IMG/VR virus record: IMGVR_UViG_2526164647_000009
Length of the DNA stretch: 17,683 nt
Origin: a virus
Lineage: Duplodnaviria; Heunggongvirae; Uroviricota; Caudoviricetes
Reading direction: 5' to 3' (one strand)
Shown: positions 1-16,872 of the stretch, piece after piece
Layout: each line of letters starts with the position of its first letter
Position numbering within the stretch: position 1 is the stretch's first letter
Notes under the pieces: model-generated
What the model was told of the DNA's origin: nothing
Database searches by the model: none
What the model saw: only the letters and a program-made list of their open reading frames with translations
Translations under genes and position numbers: made by a program

Positions 1-403
1 TTTCGGCGGGCGTGGGCCAGGCACCCGGCTTCCTTCACCCGGCCCGTTTCGTACAGTACGTTATAACCTGCATAGGCATCAGCCTGCAGTACGCCCTGAT
101 ACTTTGCCAGGTGGAGCTGCGGATGTTCTCCTTTGCGATCTGCCGAATACGCGAACCAGACGGCTGCCGGCAGGGATGAACCCGCATTACGATCATCCCT
201 GACGTATACCCACAGACGACCCGTTTTCGTCTTTCCGTTCCCCGGGGCCAGTACTTTCACCGGAGTGTCATCTGCGTGCACCTTTCCTGCCTCCAGAACA
301 TAGTCATTCAGCGCTATATACAGAGGACGGAGTTTGTCTGCCATTTCTGATACCCTGCGCACCATGGTATTACGGCTCAGCTCCACGCCCTGTCGCGCGT
401 ATA
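1..403 (-). pseudogene. IS66-family transposase (TnpC-like) internal fragment, cut by the window edge on one side and by the IS3-family insertion at 404/405 on the other
   Basis: My own minus-strand translation of 403->3 reads ...[134 protein letters not shown] with no stop. The motifs ([27 protein letters not shown]) are typical of the IS66 TnpC central region. The frame runs straight into the IS terminus at 404, so the gene is interrupted. It is not in the ORF track because it has no stop inside the window. Confidence 0.7.
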
Positions 404-447
404 TTGAGGTGTACTGGCAATAGCGGACACTACCATTTGTTCTTTTT

Positions 448-1266
448 TTAAGCAGCCATCTGATGATATTTTTCCCTGAAGGCTGCCGGGGAGATATTCC
501 CCAGACGAGAGTGACGACGCTGACGATTGTAGAAAATCTCAATGTATTCCCGTATTACTGAGATGGCTTCATCCCGGTTATTAAAACGATAGTGGCTCAG
601 GCTCTCATTTTTCAGCGTTCCCCAGAAGCTTTCCATCGGAGCGTTGTCGTAACAGTTACCTTTACGCGACATTGATGTTTTCAGACCAGACTGCTCCTGT
701 ATGACCCGGTAATCGTATGCGCAGTACTGTGAACCTCGATCAGAGTGGTGGATTAGCCCGGCAGGTGGGCGCTGGCTCCTGAGCGCCATAAACAGGGCTT
801 TACCTGTCAGCTCTTTTGTCATGCGCTCTCCCATGGCGTAGCCGACAATTTCGCACGTATAAACATCTTTGATGCCAGCGAGGTACAACCATCCCTCCTG
901 TGTGGCAACATACGTCAGGTCCGCCACCCAGACCTGATTTGGTGCTGTAGGAGCGAACGTCTGGTTCAGCAGATTTGGCGCAACTGGCAGATTGTGGTTC
1001 GGGTTCGTAGTCGCTCTGAACTTGCGTTTCTGCTTACAGCGTAGCCTCAGCTCCTTACGAAGACGTGCCAGTCGGTCACGACCAACGATGATGCCATTCT
1101 CTGCCAGCTCCGTCTGGAGCCGCCGGGTTCCATATGTTTCGCGAGTGCGGATATGTGCCACCTTAATCTCCAGTTTTAGCCGCTCATCACTTTGTTTTCT
1201 GTCTGAGGGTTCATGCTGTACCCAGTTGTAATAACCGCTCCTGGATACACCAAATACCTGACACAT
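448..1266 (-). CDS. IS3-family transposase OrfB (DDE catalytic domain), IS600-like, copy A
   Basis: The 272-aa ORF has the IS3-family integrase signature ([11 protein letters not shown]...EGWLYLA...HHSDRGSQY...[15 protein letters not shown]). It is in the -1 frame relative to the upstream orfA fragment. It differs from copy B at one residue (Leu32 versus Pro32, base 1172 versus 3113). Confidence 0.9.
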
Positions 1267-1301
1267 CGCTTCAATGGGAAATTGTTGTCGCCATTGTTCG
1301 A

Positions 1302-1482
1302 TTAACGCGTATTTTTCAGCGACTCCTGTGCAAAATACGCTGTTGATTTTTTTAATATATCGCGCTCAAGGCGAGCTTCATTTAACGCCTTACGCAGTTG
1401 CAGAATTTCAGATTCCAGTTCAGCCACCGTGCGGGAACCAGGAGTACCGAGCCCTTTTCTGGCGGCGGTAACCCATTGTCCT
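1302..1482 (-). pseudogene. IS3-family OrfA C-terminal fragment (leucine-zipper part only), IS600-like copy A; the N-terminal helix-turn-helix part is absent
   Basis: The translation ...GQWVTAARKGLGTPGSRTVAELESEILQLRKALNEARLERDILKKSTAYFAQESLKNTR shows a heptad Leu pattern and the YFA motif of IS3-family OrfA C-termini. An A7 run (1347-1353 on the minus strand) sits at the orfA/orfB overlap. The homology ends at about 1482, where the palindrome junction lies. Confidence 0.8.
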
Positions 1483-1487
1483 GAAGG

Positions 1488-1490
1488 CAC
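1488..1490. repeat. CAC, left copy of the 3-bp target-site duplication flanking IS629
   Basis: CAC lies immediately outside the IS629 terminus at 1491 and again at 2797-2799. Removing IS629 plus one CAC restores an open orfA reading frame (cct gaa ggc act tta gga caa tgg = PEGTLGQW). Confidence 0.8.
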
Positions 1491-1532
1491 TGAACCGCCC
1501 CGGGTTTCCTGGAGAGTGTTTTATCTGTGAAC

Positions 1533-2415
<883 letters not shown>

Positions 2416-2419
<4 letters not shown>

Positions 2420-2742
2420 TTTTTCCAGAGGCGGTCGAACTCCGCCTTCGCAAAATAAGCGGAAGCCTGGCGAAGGATATCGTTACTGCGGCGCAGTTCA
2501 CGATTTTCACGCTCCGGCTCTTTCAGACGCTGACGTTCAGCGGTGGTGAGCCCTCCATCACCGCCCCCGGTATCCCGCTCATGCTGGCGACCCCAGACAC
2601 GCAGAGTCTCCGGCGTACAGCCAATCTTTGGAGCAATGGAACAAATTGTCGCCCATTGTGAGTCATATTCGCCCTGACTTTCCAGAACCATACGGACTGC
2701 CCGTTGACGGACTTCGGGGGAAAAACGAGTATTTTTAGTCAT
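2416..2742 (-). CDS. IS629 transposase OrfA (helix-turn-helix and leucine zipper), 108 aa
   Basis: [108 protein letters not shown] matches my memory of IS629 OrfA. Its stop overlaps the orfB ATG (ATGA). It lies 40 bp inside the right-hand inverted repeat. Confidence 0.9.
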
Positions 2743-2796
2743 CCTGTTTACCTCTTTCTCAGGAAGTTTAGTCTCCAGGATTCCCGGGGCGGTTCA

Positions 2797-2799
2797 CAC
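2797..2799. repeat. CAC, right copy of the 3-bp target-site duplication flanking IS629
   Basis: Same trinucleotide as 1488-1490, directly abutting the other IS629 terminus. Confidence 0.8.
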
Positions 2800-2800
2800 T

Positions 2801-2983
2801 TTAGGACAATGGGTTACCGCCGCCAGAAAAGGGCTCGGTACTCCTGGTTCCCGCACGGTGGCTGAACTGGAATCTGAAATTCTGCAACTGCGTAAGGCGT
2901 TAAATGAAGCTCGCCTTGAGCGAGATATATTAAAAAAAGCAACAGCGTATTTTGCACAGGAGTCGCTGAAAAATACGCGTTAA
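2801..2983 (+). pseudogene. IS3-family OrfA C-terminal fragment, IS600-like copy B; the N-terminal part is absent from this window
   Basis: The frame reads LGQWVTAARKGLGTPGSRTVAELESEILQLRKALNEARLERDILKKATAYFAQESLKNTR and stops at 2981-2983. There is no upstream start, helix-turn-helix region or left inverted repeat. Confidence 0.8.
2932..2939 (+). promoter_or_regulatory. A7G (A AAA AAG type) -1 ribosomal frameshift motif at the orfA/orfB overlap of the IS600-like element
   Basis: The A7 run followed by G sits at the point where orfB is open in the -1 frame relative to orfA, which is the standard IS3-family OrfAB fusion mechanism. The mirror motif in copy A (1346-1353, minus strand) has T instead of G after the A7 run. 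Confidence 0.7.
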
Positions 2984-3018
2984 TCGAACAATGGCGACAA
3001 CAATTTCCCATTGAAGCG

Positions 3019-3837
3019 ATGTGTCAGGTATTTGGTGTATCCAGGAGCGGTTATTACAACTGGGTACAGCATGAACCCTCAGACAGAAAACAAAGTGATG
3101 AGCGGCTAAAACCGGAGATTAAGGTGGCACATATCCGCACTCGCGAAACATATGGAACCCGGCGGCTCCAGACGGAGCTGGCAGAGAATGGCATCATCGT
3201 TGGTCGTGACCGACTGGCACGTCTTCGTAAGGAGCTGAGGCTACGCTGTAAGCAGAAACGCAAGTTCAGAGCGACTACGAACCCGAACCACAATCTGCCA
3301 GTTGCGCCAAATCTGCTGAACCAGACGTTCGCTCCTACAGCACCAAATCAGGTCTGGGTGGCGGACCTGACGTATGTTGCCACACAGGAGGGATGGTTGT
3401 ACCTCGCTGGCATCAAAGATGTTTATACGTGTGAAATTGTCGGCTACGCCATGGGAGAGCGCATGACAAAAGAGCTGACAGGTAAAGCCCTGTTTATGGC
3501 GCTCAGGAGCCAGCGCCCACCTGCCGGGCTAATCCACCACTCTGATCGAGGTTCACAGTACTGCGCATACGATTACCGGGTCATACAGGAGCAGTCTGGT
3601 CTGAAAACATCAATGTCGCGTAAAGGTAACTGTTACGACAACGCTCCGATGGAAAGCTTCTGGGGAACGCTGAAAAATGAGAGCCTGAGCCACTATCGTT
3701 TTAATAACCGGGATGAAGCCATCTCAGTAATACGGGAATACATTGAGATTTTCTACAATCGTCAGCGTCGTCACTCTCGTCTGGGGAATATCTCCCCGGC
3801 AGCCTTCAGGGAAAAATATCATCAGATGGCTGCTTAA
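3019..3837 (+). CDS. IS3-family transposase OrfB (DDE domain), IS600-like, copy B
   Basis: The 272-aa ORF is identical to the copy A OrfB except for Pro32. Confidence 0.9.
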   Translation: MCQVFGVSRSGYYNWVQHEPSDRKQSDERLKPEIKVAHIRTRETYGTRRLQTELAENGIIVGRDRLARLRKELRLRCKQKRKFRATTNPNHNLPVAPNLLNQTFAPTAPNQVWVADLTYVATQEGWLYLAGIKDVYTCEIVGYAMGERMTKELTGKALFMALRSQRPPAGLIHHSDRGSQYCAYDYRVIQEQSGLKTSMSRKGNCYDNAPMESFWGTLKNESLSHYRFNNRDEAISVIREYIEIFYNRQRRHSRLGNISPAAFREKYHQMAA

Positions 3838-3882
3838 AAAAAGAACAAATGGTAGTGTCCGCTATTGCCAGTACACCTCAAA

Positions 3883-4188
3883 CTACTCATTGCCAGATGG
3901 GAACTGACCGCAGAACAGGCTGTCGCACAGCAGTTAAAAAATCAGGTGTCAAAAGGAAATCTTATCGATACCGGATTTTGTATTTTTGCCCTTAGTAAGC
4001 TGGCGATGGCTTTATCCAGTACGCTTGACTCCATTCCTTTGTCCATGCAACGACAGTTCCCGGATTTAACGCCGCGTCATATTGATCATCTGAAAATCCT
4101 TATTGCTAAGGGAGCGAATCAGTGCGCGCGTGCGGGGGATAAATTACCGGATTTACTCGATGAATATATCAGAACAACAACTGAGTAA
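3883..4188 (+). pseudogene. nu1: Terminase small subunit (lambda Nu1-like), C-terminal roughly 100 codons only; the 5' part of the gene is replaced by the IS600-like element
   Basis: The translation ...ARWELTAEQAVAQQLKNQVSKGNLIDTGFCIFALSKLAMALSSTLDSIPLSMQRQFPDLTPRHIDHLKILIAKGANQCARAGDKLPDLLDEYIRTTTE aligns with the lambda Nu1 C-terminal region (RHRLTRAQADAQELKN...ETAFCTFVLSRIA...LPLSVQRRFPEL...LSEYIEQSG, from memory). The homology starts exactly at the IS end. The 3' end overlaps the start of A as in lambda. Confidence 0.85.
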
Positions 4189-6088: not shown

Positions 6089-6275
6089 ACTGCAGGCGCT
6101 GCGTCAGGCGCGCCTTGATTTATTAACCGGTAAACGGGTTGTGTCGGTACAGAAAGACGGTCGCAGGATCGAATATACGGCAGCGTCCCTGAATGAGCTT
6201 AACCGTGCGATCAACGATGCGGAGTCGGTTCTGGGTACGACCCGACGCCGCCGACCGCTGGGAGTGAGGTTATGA
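6072..6275 (+). CDS. W: Head-tail joining / head completion protein (lambda gpW-like)
   Basis: The 67-aa product ...LTGKRVVSVQKDGRRIEYTAASLNEL...RRRRP resembles lambda W (...[20 protein letters not shown]...). There is a GGAGGA ribosome-binding site at 6062-6067, and the position between A and B is conserved. Confidence 0.9.
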   Translation: MVTVAELQALRQARLDLLTGKRVVSVQKDGRRIEYTAASLNELNRAINDAESVLGTTRRRRPLGVRL

Positions 6276-7865
6276 AACGAACGCCTGTCCTGATTGATGT
6301 GAACGGCGTTCCGCTTCGTGAGAGTCTCAGCTACAACGGAGGCGGCGCAGGATTTGGCGGGCAAATGGCAGAGTGGTTACCACCGGCGCAGAGTGCCGAT
6401 GCGGCCCTGTTGCCTGCATTGCGTCTGGGGAATGCCCGGGCAGATGATCTGGTGCGCAATAACGGTATCGCGGCTAATGCGGTGGCCCTGCATAAGGATC
6501 ATATCGTCGGGCACATGTTTCTTATCAGCTACCGTCTGAACTGGCGTTGGCTGGGGATGCGGGAGACCACGGCAAAAAGTTTTGTCGGGGAGGTGGAAGC
6601 AGCCTGGTCGGAATACGCAGAAGGAATGTTTGGCGAGATCGACGTGGAAGGGAAACGCACGTTTACGGAATTTATCCGTGAAGGGGTGGGCGTGCATGCC
6701 TTTAACGGCGAAATCTTTGTGCAGCCGGTCTGGGATACGGAAACCACGCAGTTATTCCGTACGCGTTTTAAAGCCGTGAGTCCGAAACGGGTGGACACGC
6801 CAGGACACGGTATGGGGAACCACTTTCTGCGGGCCGGGGTTGAGGTCGATCGGTATGGGCGGGCGATTGCGTACCATATCTGTGAGGATGATTTTCCGTT
6901 CTCTGGTGCCGGACGCTGGGAGCGGATCCCGCGTGAGCTTCCCACCGGGCGTCCGGCCATGCTGCATATTTTTGAGCCGGTGGAGGACGGGCAGACCCGT
7001 GGGGCCAATCAGTTTTACAGCGTAATGGAGCGGATGAAGATGCTGGACTCCCTGCAGGCCACGCAGCTTCAGTCGGCCATTGTGAAGGCGATGTATGCAG
7101 CCACAATCGAAAGTGAACTTGATACCGAAAAGGCATTTGAATATATCGCGGGGGCACCGCAAGGTCAGCAGGATAATCCGCTTATTAATATTCTGGAGAA
7201 GTTCACCCGCTGGTATGACACGAATAACGTGACGCTGGGCGGTGTTAAAATTCCGCACCTTTTTTCCTGGCGATGCGCTGAACCTGCAGACAGCGCAGGA
7301 TTCAGACAATGGATTTTCGGCGCTTGAACAGGCGCTGCTGCGGTATATTGCAGCCGGTCTTGGCGTTTCCTACGAACAGTTGTCCCGTGATTACTCGAAG
7401 GTCAGTTACTCAAGTGCCCGTGCCTCCGCCAATGAGTCGTGGCGCTATTTTATGGGGCGGCGAAAATTTATTGCGGCCCGGCTGGCCACGCAGATGTTTT
7501 CCTGCTGGCTGGAAGAGGCGCTTCTTCGGGGGATTATTCGTCCGCCACGGGCGCGTTTTGATTTTTACCAGGCGCGTTCAGCCTGGTCACGGGCAGAGTG
7601 GATTGGCTCCGGAAGAATGGCCATTGACGGGCTCAAGGAGGTCCAGGAATCGGTGATGCGCATTGAGGCCGGACTGAGCACGTATGAGAAAGAACTGGCA
7701 CTGATGGGCGAAGATTATCAGGACATTTTCCGCCAGCAGGTCAGGGAATCCGCAGAGCGCGAAAAAGCCGGACTCTCACGTCCGGTGTGGATAGCCCAGG
7801 CGTATCAGCAGCAGATAGCGGAGAGTCGCAGGCCGGAAGAGGAGACAACATCACGTGAGACGTAA
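6272..7865 (+). pseudogene. B: Portal protein (lambda gpB-like) with a +1 frameshift at the T6 run 7260-7265
   Basis: ORF 6272-7327 carries the N-terminal 330 or so residues (...GGGAGFGGQ...ARADDLVRNNG...IFEPVEDGQTRGANQFYSVME...SAIVKAMYAATIESELDT...GGVKIPHLF). ORF 7242-7865 carries the remainder (FPGDALNLQTAQDSDNGFS...LLRYIAAGLGVSYEQLSR...WIGSGRMAIDGLKEVQE...). Both align with lambda B. The total span is 3n+1. Confidence 0.9.
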
Positions 7866-9360
7866 TCTTTCACATATTATCGCTGCGGCATTCAATGAGC
7901 CGCTGCTTCTGGAGCCCGCCTATGCGCGGGTTTTCTTTTGCGCGCTCGGGCGTGAGATGGGCGCAGCAAGCCTTTCGGTACCGCAACAGCAGGTACAGCT
8001 TGACGCTCCCGGGATGCTGGCTGAAACGGACGAGTACATGGCCGGAGGCAAACGACCTGCCCGTGTTTACCGGGTGGTGAACGGTATTGCTGTACTGCCG
8101 GTGACCGGCACGCTGGTACACCGGCTGGGTGGCATGCGGCCATTTTCCGGAATGACTGGCTATGACGGCATTGTCGCCTGTCTTCAGCAGGCAATGGCGG
8201 ACACTCAGGTACGGGGCGTACTGCTGGACATTGACAGTCCTGGCGGGCAGGCCACCGGCGCGTTTGACTGCGCTGACATGATTTACCGTCTCCGGCAGCT
8301 GAAGCCTGTCTGGGCACTGTGCAATGACACGGCCTGTTCAGCCGCCATGTTACTGGCATCGGCCTGCTCCCGACGGCTGGTTACCCAGACATCCCGTATC
8401 GGCTCCATTGGGGTGATGATGGGCCATGTCAGCTATGCCGGTCATCTGGCACAGGCCGGTGTGGATATCACGCTGATTTACGCCGGATCGCACAAGGTGG
8501 ATGGCAATCAGTTTGAATCCCTGCCAGCAAAGGTTCGCCAGGACATGCAGCAGCGCATTGATGCGGCGCGCCGGATGTTTGCTGAAAAAGTGGCGATGTA
8601 TACCGGTTTATCTGTGGATGCGGTTATGGGAACAGAGGCCGCCGTTTTTGAAGGTCAGTCCGGTATTGAGGCCGAACTGGCGGATGAATTAATCAATGCG
8701 TCGGACGCCATCAGCGTGATGGCTGCGACGCTGAACACACACGATACAGGAGGCACTATGCCGCAATTAACTGCAACGGAGGCTGCCGCGCAGGAGAACC
8801 AGCGAGTGATGGGGATCCTGACGTGTCAGGAAGCGAAAGGACGTGAACAACTGGCCACGATGCTGGCAGGGCAACAGGGTATGAGCGTTGAGCAGGCCCG
8901 GGCGATTCTGGCCGTGGCGGCACCGCAACAATCTGGTGTATCTGCGCAGAGTGAAGCCGATCGCATTATGGCATGTGAAGAGGCGAAAGGACGTGAACAA
9001 CTGGCGGCAACGCTGGCGGCGATGCCGGAGATGACGGTGGAAAAAGCCCGTCCGATTCTGGCTGCTTCACCGCAGGCGAATGCCGGACCCTCACTTCGTG
9101 ATCAGATTATGGCCCTGGATGAGGCAAAAGGGGCAGAGGCGCAGGCTGAAAAACTGGCGGCCTGTCCGGGGATGACCGTGGAGAATGCCCGGGCTGTACT
9201 GGCGGCAGCCTCAGGCAGGGCAGAACCGGTTTCTGCATCCACAACCGCCATGTTTGAACATTTCATGGCGAACCATTCACCGGCAGCGGTACAGGGTGGC
9301 GTGCCACAGACGTCAGCAGACGGTGATGCGGACGTGAAAATGCTCATGGCCATGCCATGA
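7855..9360 (+). CDS. C: Head maturation protease / minor capsid protein C (lambda gpC-like, SppA/ClpP-type serine peptidase) with a C-terminal scaffold region
   Basis: ...AFNEPLLLEPAYARVFFCAL...NGIAVLPVTGTLV...SGMTGYDGI...LLDIDSPGGQATGAFDCADMI...KPVWALCNDTACSAAMLLASACSRRLVTQTSRIGSIGVMM...ITLIYAGSHKVDGN matches lambda C. A GTG start at 7855 overlaps the portal stop; the exact start is uncertain. Confidence 0.9.
   Translation: MRRNLSHIIAAAFNEPLLLEPAYARVFFCALGREMGAASLSVPQQQVQLDAPGMLAETDEYMAGGKRPARVYRVVNGIAVLPVTGTLVHRLGGMRPFSGMTGYDGIVACLQQAMADTQVRGVLLDIDSPGGQATGAFDCADMIYRLRQLKPVWALCNDTACSAAMLLASACSRRLVTQTSRIGSIGVMMGHVSYAGHLAQAGVDITLIYAGSHKVDGNQFESLPAKVRQDMQQRIDAARRMFAEKVAMYTGLSVDAVMGTEAAVFEGQSGIEAELADELINASDAISVMAATLNTHDTGGTMPQLTATEAAAQENQRVMGILTCQEAKGREQLATMLAGQQGMSVEQARAILAVAAPQQSGVSAQSEADRIMACEEAKGREQLAATLAAMPEMTVEKARPILAASPQANAGPSLRDQIMALDEAKGAEAQAEKLAACPGMTVENARAVLAAASGRAEPVSASTTAMFEHFMANHSPAAVQGGVPQTSADGDADVKMLMAMP
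8758..9360 (+). CDS. nu3: Scaffolding protein (lambda Nu3-like), in-frame internal start within C
   Basis: A strong ribosome-binding site (ACAGGAGG, 8746-8752) lies 5 nt upstream of an in-frame ATG at 8758. The product MPQLTATEAAAQENQRVMGILTCQEAKGREQ... corresponds to the lambda Nu3 region (...AAENSRIMGILNCEEAHGRE...). Confidence 0.7.
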   Translation: MPQLTATEAAAQENQRVMGILTCQEAKGREQLATMLAGQQGMSVEQARAILAVAAPQQSGVSAQSEADRIMACEEAKGREQLAATLAAMPEMTVEKARPILAASPQANAGPSLRDQIMALDEAKGAEAQAEKLAACPGMTVENARAVLAAASGRAEPVSASTTAMFEHFMANHSPAAVQGGVPQTSADGDADVKMLMAMP

Positions 9361-9801: not shown

Positions 9802-10830
9802 ATGGGATTGTTTACGACCCGCCAGTTACTCGGTTATACCGAACAAAAAGTTAAATTTCGTGCGCTGTTTCTGGAGCTGTTTTTCCGCCGTACGGTGAAT
9901 TTCCATACCGAAGAGGTAATGCTGGACAAAATTACCGGAAAAACGCCGGTGGCGGCCTATGTCTCCCCGGTTGTTGAAGGAAAGGTGTTGCGTCACCGTG
10001 GCGGTGAAACTCGTGTACTGCGCCCGGGCTACGTTAAGCCGAAACACGAATTTAATTACCAGCAGGCGGTGGAGCGTCTTCCCGGTGAAGATCCGGCCCA
10101 GCTGAACGACCCGGCTTACCGTCGCCTGCGTATCATCACCGATAACCTCAAACAGGAAGAGCACGCCATTGTCCAGGTGGAAGAGATGCAGGCGGTGAAT
10201 GCCGTGCTGTATGGCAAATACACCATGGAAGGAGAGCAGTTTGAAACTGTTGAGGTCGATTTTGGCCGGTCGGTGGGAAATAACATTACGCAGGCAGGAG
10301 GGACGGAGTGGAGCGCTCAGGACCGCGATACCTTTGATCCGACGCATGATCTGGATGCGTACTGTGATTTTGCTTCCGGCACCATCAATATTGCCATTAT
10401 GGATGGTAAGGTCTGGCGTCTGCTGAATGGCTTTAAGCTGTTCCGCGAAAAACTGGATACCCGTCGTGGCTCAAATTCACAGCTGGAAACGGCAGTGAAA
10501 GACCTGGGGGCGGTGGTGTCCTTCAAAGGGTATTATGGTGATCTGGCAATCGTGGTGGCAAAAACGTCCTATGTGGCAGAGGACGGTACCGAAAAACGTT
10601 ATCTGCCGGACGGCACACTGGTACTGGGAAATACGGCCGCAGAGGGTATTCGTTGCTACGGTGCCATTCAGGATGCGCAGGCATTGTCTGAAGGCGTGGT
10701 GGCGTCTTCCCGTTATCCGAAACACTGGCTGACCGTGGGTGATCCGGCGCGTGAATTCACCATGACGCAGTCCGCGCCGCTGATGGTGCTGCCGGATCCG
10801 GATGAGTTTGTGGTGGTGCAGGTGAAATAA
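9802..10830 (+). CDS. E: Major capsid protein (lambda gpE-like)
   Basis: The 342-aa product ...YVSPVVEGKVLRHRGGE...PGYVKPKHE...DPAYRRLRII...AIVQVEEMQAV...LYGKYTMEGEQFE...EKLDTRRGSNSQLETAVKDLG...YPKHWLTVGDPAREFTMTQSAPLMVLPDPDEFV is collinear with lambda E. Confidence 0.95.
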   Translation: MGLFTTRQLLGYTEQKVKFRALFLELFFRRTVNFHTEEVMLDKITGKTPVAAYVSPVVEGKVLRHRGGETRVLRPGYVKPKHEFNYQQAVERLPGEDPAQLNDPAYRRLRIITDNLKQEEHAIVQVEEMQAVNAVLYGKYTMEGEQFETVEVDFGRSVGNNITQAGGTEWSAQDRDTFDPTHDLDAYCDFASGTINIAIMDGKVWRLLNGFKLFREKLDTRRGSNSQLETAVKDLGAVVSFKGYYGDLAIVVAKTSYVAEDGTEKRYLPDGTLVLGNTAAEGIRCYGAIQDAQALSEGVVASSRYPKHWLTVGDPAREFTMTQSAPLMVLPDPDEFVVVQVK

Positions 10831-13822: not shown

Positions 13823-14160
13823 CGCGGGAAATGCAGTTTGTCATGCGGCTTGCCCGGGAGTTCCGGCGGGCAGACTGGCGGCGGATGCTGTCGGATATGT
13901 CGGCCACTGAGCTTGGTGAGTGGGGCGATTATTTCCGGATGCAGAGCTTCAGTGATGTGTGGATGGATGCGCAGTTTGCCTCGCTGAAGGCATTGATCGT
14001 GAGAATGGTGTCCGGCAGCAGCGATGCTGCGGTGGCTGATTTCAGCCTTTTACCGGAAGAGAACGGGATACCGGAGCGAACGGACGAAGAACTGATGCAT
14101 CTTGGGGAAGGTATTTCCGGAGGTGTGCGTTATGGACCAGATAGCCAACCTGGTCATTGA
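13798..14160 (+). CDS. T: T portion of the tail assembly chaperone G-T fusion (lambda gpT-like), in the -1 frame relative to G; expected to be expressed only as a G-T fusion by ribosomal frameshifting
   Basis: The -1 frame is open from 13798, directly after its own stop at 13795-13797, and overlaps the last 22 nt of G. It reads ...GKVLTREMQFVMRLAREFRRADWRRM.... The G/T arrangement matches lambda. The only slip candidate in the overlap is GGAAAAG at 13810-13816. Confidence 0.8.
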   Translation, partial: GADAGKVLTREMQFVMRLAREFRRADWRRMLSDMSATELGEWGDYFRMQSFSDVWMDAQFASLKALIVRMVSGSSDAAVADFSLLPEENGIPERTDEELMHLGEGISGGVRYGPDSQPGH

Positions 14161-16872
14161 TTTGGGGATTGATGCGGCAGAGTTTAAAAATGAAATTCCC
14201 CGTATCAAAAACCTTCTGAATGGTGCAGCCAGCGATGCAGAACGGTCTTCTGCCCGTATGCAGCGTTTTATGGAGCGTCAGACTCAGGCGGCCCGGCAGA
14301 CAATGCAGGCGGCTTCTTCGGCTGCAACAGCAGCATCAGCCCATGCGCAGACGGTGGAGAAGAATGCACGGGCTCATGAACGCATGGCCCGTGAGGTGGA
14401 ACAAACCCGTCTGCGCGTGGATGCCCTGAATCAGAAAATGCGCGAGGAACAGGCGCAGGCCAGGGCGGCTCAGCTGGGGGTAAGCAGTGCTGCAGAAGTG
14501 TATATCCGCAAAATGGAGCGGGCAGGAAAAGCCACACATTCGCTGGGGCTGAAAAGTGCGGCAGCCCGGCGGGAGCTGGGGGTGTTAATCAGTCAGATGG
14601 CGCGCGGCAATTTTGGTGCGCTGAGGGGATCCGGGATAACGCTGGCTAACCGTGCCGGATGGACTGGCGCACTGATGTCGCCGAAAGGCATGATGACTGG
14701 CGGCGTTATTGGCGGACTTGTCGCGGCGGTCCTGGGTCTGGGTAAAGCCTGGCATGACGGCCGGAAGGAGGGCGAGAAATTTAACCGTCAGCTGGCGCTG
14801 ACGGGACATTATGCCGGTGTCACTGTCGGGCAGTTGTGGAAACTCAGCCGGGCCATATCCGGGAATGGTATCACGCAACATGCGGCAGCCGGTGCGCTGG
14901 CACAGGTGGTGGGCAGTGGGGCATTTCATGGAAACGATATTGGTATGGTGGCGAAAGCTGCCGCACAGATGGAGCGATCGGTTGGCCAGTCGGTCAGCGA
15001 TACCATAAATCAGTTTAAGCGGCTGAAGGATGATCCTGTAAATGCCGCGAAGGCGCTGGACAATGCGCTGCATTTTTTGAATGCCACTCAGCTTGAGCAG
15101 ATACGCGTCCTTGGGGAGCAAGGGGCGGTCCAGTGATGCGGCCCGGATCGCCATGTCTGCGCTGGCAGAGGAAACCGGTAAACGCACATCTGATATTGAT
15201 AATAATCTCAATGCGCTGGGTAGTACGCTGCAAACCTTGTCTGACTGGTGGAAGCAGTTCTGGGATGCGGCCATGAATATTGGTCGTGAAGACTCGCTGG
15301 ATGCGCAGATCGATGCGTTACAGGAAAAAATTCAGCGCGCGAAAAAATATCCGTGGACAAACGCCTCCACACAGGTGGAGTACGATCAGCAGCGTCTTAA
15401 CGATCTTCAGGAGAAAAAACGCCGGAAGGATTTGCAGGATGCAAAAGCGCAGGCAGAACGGAATTACCAGGAGCAACAGAAACGCCGGAATGCTGAAAAT
15501 GCCGCGCTGAACCGGATGAATGAAACGGAAGCTGCACGACATCAGCGGGAAATTGCGCGTATTAATGCCATGCAGTACGCCGACCAGGCTGTCAGGGATG
15601 CGGCGATACAGCGTGAAAATGAACGTTACGAAAAAGCCATTAAGAAAAATACACGGGCAACCCGTAATGATGAGGCCACCCGGTTATTGCTGCAGTACAG
15701 TCAGCAGCAGGCACAGGTGGAAGGGCAGATTGCTGCTGCCAGACAGTCAGCAGGCATTGCCACTGAAAGGATGACTGAAGCGCATAAACAGCTTCTGGCC
15801 CTGCAGCAGCGCATCAGCGACCTGGACGGGAAAAAGCTGACGGCAGATGAAAAGAGTGTGCTGGCCCGTAAGAATGAGCTGATTCAGGCGCTGACGCTGC
15901 TGGATGTGAAACAGCAGGAGCTGCAGAAACAGACAGCGCTTAACGACCTGAGAAAAGAAAACGGTTCAGCTGACCAGCCAGCTGGCAGACAAAGAACGTG
16001 CACTGCGTGAGCAGCACAATCTGGATATTGCCACTGCAGGTATGGGGGATAAGCAGCGGCAGCGCTACCAGGCACCGTTGCGCATCCGGCAGGAATACCG
16101 GCAACAGTTGCAACAGCTTGAGAATGACAGTCGCCAGAAAGGCACTTACGGGACGGAGGACTACCGGAGGGCTGAGGAGGTGCTGAAGGGGAGCCTGAAG
16201 CGACAACTGAATGAAAACAAACGCTACTGGCAGGAACTGGAAGTGGCGCAGGGCGACTGGAAAAACGGTGCCATGCGGGCGTTTCAGAATTTTACGGCGG
16301 ATGCGGATAATGCGGCGGGAACGGCAGAACAGATGTTTACAGTGGCATTCAGCAGTGCCGGTAATGCACTGGCGACATTCTGTACCACCGGTAAGCTGAA
16401 TTTTAAATCCTTCACCTCTTCCCTGTTGTCAGATATGGCCAGAATTATGGCACAGATGGCCATGATGCAGGCGGTAAAGGGCGTCGGTTCTTTATTCGGC
16501 TTCACGACTAATGCTGATGGCGGTGTTTACCAGTCTGCTGATTTGAGTCGCTACAGTGGCACGGTGGTTAACCGTCCGACGTTTTTTGCTTTTGCAAAAG
16601 GCGCGGGTGTGATGGGGGAAGCGGGACCTGAAGCCATTCTGCCACTGCGTCGCGGTGCTGATGGTAAGCTGGGGGTTGTGGCGGATACTGGTGGTTCAGG
16701 CATGGTGATGTTTGCCCCGCAGTACAACATTGAGATCAATAACGACGGCACGAACGGGCAGATAGGTCCGGCTGCCCTGAAGGTGGTTTATGACCTCGGG
16801 AAAAAAGCGGCCGCGGACTTTATGCAACAGCAGGCCCGTGATGGTGGCCGGTTAAGTGGAGCATACCGGTAA
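14132..16872 (+). pseudogene. H: Tail tape measure protein (lambda gpH-like) broken by two +1 frameshifts, within 15081-15134 and within 15952-16010
   Basis: Three consecutive ORFs in frames 2, 0 and 1 together align with lambda H from N-terminus to C-terminus (MDQIANLVIDLGIDAAEF... to ...INNDGTNGQIGPAALKVVYDLGKKAAADFMQQQARDGG, compared with lambda ...VINNDGTNGQIGPAALKAVYDMARKGARDEIQTQMRDGG). The total span is 2741 nt (3n+2). A GGAGG ribosome-binding site lies 8 nt before the ATG at 14132. Confidence 0.9.

Follow-up and report, generated by a model that had tools for sequence, protein, structure and literature searches.

The window analyzed in this study, i.e., the whole 17,683-nt stretch of the IMG/VR virus record IMGVR_UViG_2526164647_000009 (Caudoviricetes), contains a prophage in which a short protein module is repeated three times in tandem within the scaffold portion of a gene of the lambda C/Nu3 type. 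The gene, listed as an open reading frame (ORF) at 7855..9360 (+) with a GTG start, encodes a product of 501 amino acids (aa), of which aa 147-292 correspond to an S49 peptidase domain (Pfam PF01343, E = 3.2e-33). This product is also matched by PHROG 53, head maturation protease (E = 3e-222), and lambda gpC shares 52% identity with it over the protease domain and the first repeat unit. A portal gene of the lambda family (PF05136) lies upstream, and the downstream neighbors are gpD-like and gpE-like genes (HDPD, PF02924, and Phage_cap_E, PF03864), with the major capsid protein encoded at 9802-10830. By its domain content and genomic context, the product is an S49 prohead protease of the lambda gpC type.

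Within this gene, an ATG at 8758 is in frame with the protease (residue 302) and is preceded by the Shine-Dalgarno sequence AGGAGG (8748..8753, +; read from the sequence), which coincides with the putative ribosome-binding site of gene 6 of phage 21. The ATG itself coincides with the annotated, likewise putative, start of that phage 21 scaffold gene. A nested in-frame scaffold gene of 200 aa can therefore be placed at 8758..9360 (+), with a putative start assigned by homology to the annotation of GenBank records M81255.1 and OL657228.1. Furthermore, the PHROG scaffold/Nu3 profiles 8399 and 8940 match the scaffold region, where the repeat units are matched three times, and it is probable that the C-terminal 200 aa are also made separately as a nested scaffold protein. 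The original prediction had placed the repeat entirely inside the nested scaffold reading frame. As far as the position is concerned this stands, since the whole array lies 3' of the ATG at 8758; the start of that frame, however, is a putative one and is not equivalent to that of lambda.

The array consists of three tandem units of 47-51 aa, namely unit 1 (8785..8937, +; aa 311-361; 89 bits with a hidden Markov model (HMM) of the unit), unit 2 (8944..9087, +; aa 364-411; 92 bits), and unit 3 (9088..9228, +; aa 412-458; 87 bits). The three units have 16 invariant columns in common and follow the consensus ER.RI..IL.C.EAKGRE.LA..LA..PGMTVE.AK.ILAAAP; the three peptides that had been listed for them are found verbatim in the translation of 7855-9360. 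Unit 1 is the copy whose N-terminal flank matches that of the single unit of lambda, and unit 2 is the one that is wholly or partly deleted in natural variants of 451, 452, and 482 aa. Unit 3 is the most diverged, as had been pointed out, with 19-23 of 42 residues identical to units 1 and 2. In a gap-free repeat search, positions 8819-8912 pair with 8969-9062 (94 nt, 73% identity, spacing 150), and a three-member repeat family was found at 8877-8912, 9027-9062, and 9168-9203 (spacings 150 and 141). Tandem Repeats Finder, run on the window, did not report the array in the scaffold region, because DNA identity between the units is only 53-65%. At the protein level, local BLOSUM62 scores between units range from 82 to 106 compared to a shuffle mean of approximately 25 (z = 12-16), and the observed scores were reached by none of 2000 composition-preserving shuffles.

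Embedded in this array is an exact repeat of 23 nt, GCGAAAGGACGTGAACAACTGGC, which occurs exactly twice, at 8833..8855 (+) in unit 1, where it covers the codons for AKGREQLA, and at 8983..9005 (+) in unit 2, where the deletion junction of the two-unit variant described below falls inside the block. Both the positions and the period of 150 bp agree with those originally given, and no such repeat is expected (200 shuffles). While units 1 and 2 of the window share the block exactly, the two copies in phage 21 show 4 differences. The 23-nt identity is thus lineage-specific, which suggests short-tract gene conversion in the lineage of the window. Altogether, the S49 domain, the gene order, and the unit HMM agree that a motif has been multiplied threefold in the scaffold part of a gene of the C/Nu3 type; the original prediction was right both about the existence of the repeat and about its interpretation.

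The triple repeat itself is not new. GenBank record M81255.1 ("Bacteriophage 21 head gene operon") contains three repeat_region features in gene 6, which are labeled "Tri1 box", "Tri box", and "Tri3 box" and each carry the note "function unknown; putative". Transferred to the window, these features correspond to 8825-8928, 8965-9075, and 9106-9219, inside units 1, 2, and 3, respectively. The paper accompanying the record is reportedly that of Smith and Feiss (Gene, 1993). Genes 5 and 6 of phage 21, which encode the head-tail preconnector/protease gp5 and the nested scaffold gp6, resemble the gene in the window in length (501 aa) and internal start, with few amino acid differences. By megablast, the full 1506 nt of the gene match phage 21 and approximately 18 other isolated phages at 92% nucleotide identity with unchanged length, and all isolated phages of the collection with a full-gene match have the three-unit length (18 of the 19 records at ≥80% coverage). 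The identical length recurs in independently sequenced phages, including phage 21 (sequenced twice), ev017, 4A7, and the PhiR series. Moreover, the scaffold region was found in 1865 of 5426 complete Escherichia coli genomes, roughly a third (≥80% coverage, mostly 90-95% identity), and both Shigella flexneri and E. coli have entries for a near-identical protein (search score 100%, with two visible substitutions in unit 3). The repeat is therefore best described as already annotated, in the form of the phage 21 Tri boxes, and as common in E. coli prophages. What is new here is that the module is widely distributed as a single copy and is predicted to fold into three helices, that selection acts on each copy, how old the triplication is, and which copy-number variants exist, with their junctions.

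These records also bear on the question whether the repeat could have been created in assembly or sequencing, or could reflect a chance resemblance within an alanine-rich segment. The segment is indeed rich in alanine, and records of a 551-aa form with four units do look artefactual (see below). However, the three-unit length in independent phages and in the 1865 E. coli genomes already refutes this explanation, the units differ from one another in a way that collapsed or duplicated reads would not produce, and the composition-preserving shuffles never reach the observed unit scores. Because of the many independent records, we regard an artefact as excluded.

With the unit HMM, three units were found in the window, phage 21, and the Salmonella prophage Gifsy-1, compared to one in lambda, N15, and phi80. 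The single copy of lambda, CEEAHGREEQARVLAETPGMTVKTARRILAAAPQ, is the one given in the original prediction and is supported by both the HMM and the sequence; likewise, the product in the window exceeds the 439 aa of the lambda protein by about 60 residues, as stated there. Lambda gpC/Nu3 is otherwise organized like the locus studied here: an S49 protease is followed by a scaffold in the same frame, the genes are ordered portal, C/Nu3, D, E, and the C-terminal tails are similar, but lambda has one homologous unit instead of three. In lambda, N15, and phi80, a spacer of approximately 55 residues, rich in Ser, Thr, Ala, and Gln, lies 5' of the unit, a place that is held by the extra units in the window. 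The nested scaffolds are almost equally long (201 aa for lambda Nu3 and 200 aa in the window), although they are built from different segments. A strict compensation of length was considered on these grounds, but this idea is weakened by the start sites: the start of lambda Nu3, at gpC residue 239, falls within the protease domain, 63 residues further upstream than the putative start of the scaffold in the window (residue 302).

A search of 1.84 billion representative proteins with a profile built from the unit yielded 426 matches at E ≤ 1e-3 (representative clusters), of which the best 150 representatives at 50% identity were surveyed. Counting copies in full-length proteins only, defined as those with ≥380 aa, a single unit was found in 50 of the 52 full-length proteins among these 150. 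The single unit sits 31-70 residues before the C-terminus (with one outlier at 174), and all 10 diverse unit-bearing examples tested carry an S49 domain. When the 200-aa scaffold alone served as query, most of the proteins retrieved were partial and hardly suited to counting copies. Neither Pfam nor NCBIfam contains a model for the unit. According to the profile survey, S49 protease/scaffold proteins widely carry the unit in their C-terminal part as a single-copy module. Given the single copy in lambda, N15, and phi80 and in 50 of the 52 representatives, lambda and its relatives do not normally carry three units; one copy is the common state and probably also the ancestral one. Copy number does vary across relatives, with 1, 2, approximately 2.4, 3, and 4 units observed.

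The prohead protease of Gifsy-1, STM2605, has its three units in the same order, and each of them is nearest to its positional counterpart in the window, with 57% identity in the scaffold part, while the C-terminal tail is different. For units 1, 2, and 3, respectively, 29, 33, and 25 of 42 residues are identical to the Gifsy-1 counterpart, compared to 17-25 of 42 for non-equivalent units and 21-23 of 42 for the unit of lambda. Synonymous divergence between the units of the window is saturated (dS ≥ 1.4). Saturation and positional orthology together argue that the triplication is old and predates the split between the E. coli phage 21-like and the Salmonella Gifsy-1-like lineages. They also speak against general concerted evolution among the units, to which the 23-nt block would be a local exception. 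Furthermore, the ratio of nonsynonymous to synonymous substitutions (dN/dS) per unit, compared with phage 21 and Gifsy-1, is 0.06-0.24, next to 0.10-0.16 for the protease domain, which indicates that all three copies are constrained as protein, each under purifying selection.

This pattern bears directly on the proposal that the repeat is kept for a function at the DNA or RNA level, be it as a set of repeated sites bound by a protein, as a regulatory element within the gene, or as a site of recombination, with the protein similarity being secondary. The exact 23-nt repeat inside units that are otherwise 65% identical would fit such a function, as would the deletions in the variants, which end in short direct repeats, and the 'CII binding sites' that record OL657228.1 (phage 21) marks by pattern on the minus strand of the scaffold region. 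However, a loose pattern is all that the latter match, phage 21 does not share the 23-nt identity, and very distant phages whose DNA is unrelated still conserve the module at the protein level. Since conservation is seen at the amino acid level with synonymous sites saturated and DNA identity between units at 53-65%, we consider a DNA-level function very unlikely. As a separate observation, one such minus-strand 'CII binding site' (ttgynnnnnnttgy) of OL657228.1 (5548-5561) corresponds to 8997-9010 of the window, inside unit 2; for the CII-site patterns, no conservation was found beyond that imposed by the coding sequence.

Structure prediction, which had been proposed for the repeat unit, gave a confident three-helix model. 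A single unit, modeled with AlphaFold2 (AF2) from an alignment of 50 unit sequences from diverse proteins, reached a predicted local distance difference test score (pLDDT) of 87.9 and a predicted template modeling score of 0.69, with helices spanning residues 3-18, 27-34, and 41-50 (query of 61 residues). The unit is thus confidently predicted to be a small three-helix domain. The AF2 model of the whole 200-aa scaffold, built with 13 close homologs, reached a pLDDT of 52 and consists of helices joined by low-confidence linkers; it was left out of the fold search. Among predicted viral structures, the same fold as that of the unit model was found in other S49 prohead proteases (template modeling scores of 0.77-0.84). 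The scaffold sequence yielded zero matches in the PDB even at E ≤ 10. The units are followed by a C-terminal tail (9229..9357, +; aa 459-501) with two short predicted helices, TTAMFEHFMANH and DADVKMLMA, which are AF2 secondary structure of low confidence; the tail aligns with that of lambda, DTALDRLM...DAVNDLLNTPV.

Scaffold proteins of tailed phages are flexible proteins in which helical C-terminal elements contact the coat protein (PMC11565965). The scaffolds of P22, with its helix-turn-helix, phi29, SPP1, and 80alpha resemble the unit in having a small helical element near the C-terminus of an otherwise flexible protein. However, P22's coat-binding domain consists of two helices, whereas three are predicted for the unit, which is present in three copies and followed by a further tail of 43 residues, and no similarity in sequence or fold was found between the unit and these scaffold domains, the P22 helix-turn-helix included. 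Tandem three-helix binding modules, i.e., the staphylococcal protein A domains, the GA albumin-binding modules, and the UBA/CUE domains, were also listed among the nearest systems.

Natural variants of the array differ in the number of units. In the 451-aa form, unit 2 has been wholly lost through a deletion of 150 nt, leaving two units, one of which is a hybrid of units 1 and 2; the CGTGAACA block common to both units contains the junction, which is located inside the 23-nt repeat, and the surrounding head module looks intact. The 482-aa form retains approximately 2.4 units after a deletion of 57 nt inside unit 2 between CTGGCGGC direct repeats. This form is very common, its protein being found in 3592 index blocks, and its head and tail modules look intact; with a 50-nt junction query, which worked for the 482-aa form only, the junction was found in at least 56 complete E. 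coli genomes, a lower bound. The 452-aa form also has two units and lacks unit 2; the one locus examined belongs to a visibly degraded prophage of O157:H7. In addition, a distant 198-aa protein contains a two-unit array that points to an independent duplication.

A four-unit form is found in a separate E. coli lineage, in which the units are, by eye, visibly more similar to each other. This form was found at full length in 104 of 5426 complete genomes. Baseplate genes (GPW_gp25 and Baseplate_J) come after its lambda-like head module, which suggests a phage with a contractile tail. A second apparent four-unit form, of 551 aa (P0242/P0243), was first taken as real and then rejected: both copies of an exact 150-nt duplication contain an N, at gene positions 1323 and 1473 (L009 7323 and 7473; L013 2596 and 2746), and the two public E. 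coli assemblies, GCA_900537015.1 and GCA_900536945.1, have near-consecutive accessions. The 551-aa form is therefore probably a repeat-induced assembly artefact that entered the protein databases. A further record, P0160 (258 aa), is a Gifsy-1-like scaffold that has Val, Ile, Leu, or Phe in place of most of its Ala, Thr, and Pro residues. Wholesale C-to-T changes in the underlying DNA would give this pattern, and the record looks more like the product of damaged or converted reads than like a genuine variant.

The C/scaffold ORF of the window is intact but lies within a decaying prophage. Three elements of the IS3 family occupy 399-3886 and end just 5' of the terminase genes. Two of them (399-1486 and 2799-3886) are inverted copies of 1088 nt each with 99% identity, which carry rve transposase ORFs of 272 aa (448-1266, -, and 3019-3837, +); this pair flanks the third element, with ORFs at 1533-2201 (-) and 2416-2742 (-). 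Of a Nu1-type small terminase, the C-terminal half alone remains (3895-4173; aa 86-178 of 182), directly after the end of the insertion at 3886. The insertion has truncated the small terminase gene, and judging from this remnant, the prophage should be unable to package DNA. Furthermore, the portal gene (6272-7865) reads as two ORFs that overlap, 6272-7327 and 7242-7865, due to one extra T near 7260 relative to gene 4 of phage 21, which makes it either a frameshifted pseudogene or the result of a sequencing error. The tape-measure region (14102-16872) is read as three ORFs (14102-15136, 15081-16010, and 16042-16872), and a distant tape-measure homolog matches it in three frames. Frameshifts are likely here as well, on a comparison at 28% identity only. 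Unlike phage 21, the prophage in the window is thus, by its gene content, defective, with the small terminase cut by an insertion sequence and the portal gene frameshifted.

The repeat, its homology to the unit of lambda, its age, the selection acting on it, its predicted fold, and its variation in copy number are established by the above results. From these, we infer a binding partner and a relevance of valency as follows. The array is a tandem triplication of a module of approximately 45 residues and three predicted helices. This module forms the core that is conserved in the C-terminal scaffolding region of S49 prohead proteases of the lambda type, a region that is also produced separately as the nested scaffold protein (lambda Nu3, phage 21 gp6). 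Two old in-frame duplications in the phage 21/Gifsy-1 lineage would have produced the array, with the copies then kept by selection on the protein and the extra copies occupying the place of the low-complexity spacer of lambda. The module itself would be a protein-protein contact unit, through which the scaffold, like the protease sharing its C-terminus, would associate with itself, with the inward-facing side of the major capsid protein, or with both. With three copies, connected by flexible linkers rich in Pro, Gln, and Ala, the scaffold would become multivalent, and the copies would also target the protease into the prohead. Interactions of lambda Nu3 with E, C, and B, as well as with itself, have been reported (PMC3224144). 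The unit is the best candidate for such a contact module because it is the only strongly conserved, foldable element of the region that protease and scaffold have in common. We consider a triplicated contact module that makes the scaffold multivalent the best explanation, with a probability of roughly 60%.

Several points weigh against it. Variants without unit 2, either wholly (451 aa) or partly (482 aa), occur in head modules that look intact, and three copies are therefore not obviously required. A Foldseek search of the unit model against the PDB gave no match. Moreover, the extreme C-terminal tail, and not the repeat unit, could be the element that binds the coat protein, the contact between module and partner is a putative one, and the internal start of the scaffold is a putative annotation. 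The original prediction had left the effect of the multiplied motif on prohead assembly open, a stance that still holds.

The main rival reading is that the extra units are a largely dispensable structured spacer that sets only the length or reach of the scaffold, the number of units mattering little, with the real contacts being made by the C-terminal tail. The low-complexity segment that takes the place of the extra units in lambda, N15, and phi80 is consistent with this, as are the nearly equal lengths of the nested scaffolds and the presence of two, approximately 2.4, and four units in otherwise intact head modules. However, a mere spacer would be expected to drift toward low complexity, as that of lambda did, whereas each unit has kept the same 16 invariant residues, dN/dS per unit is as low as that of the protease domain, and positional orthologs are conserved across phages of E. 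coli and Salmonella. On balance, we regard the spacer as possible but unlikely, and favor the triplicated contact module.

Going one step further, the unit might be the general module of S49 protease/scaffold proteins for targeting to, and assembly in, the capsid interior, with its copy number (1, 2, approximately 2.4, 3, or 4) acting as an evolvable dial of valency that tunes the avidity between scaffold and shell or the kinetics of assembly. We offer this generalization tentatively, and would not expect it to hold in full. If it were true, one to four copies of a small, defined domain would be usable for loading cargo into lambda-like shells, and a comparison of phage 21 with lambda would offer a natural test of how the valency of a scaffold controls T=7 assembly.

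With respect to annotation, the lengths of 451, 452, 482, and 501 aa recorded for the S49 family peptidase, and the length in the four-unit lineage, differ by whole or partial units, and part of the apparent four-unit forms, those of 551 aa, likely arose as artefacts of assembly. For the biology of the lambda family, the contacts of lambda-type Nu3 with the capsid protein, the portal, and itself are still structurally undefined. A discrete, foldable, and conserved module would provide a concrete handle on these contacts, as a domain that may be deleted, multiplied, swapped, or used as bait.

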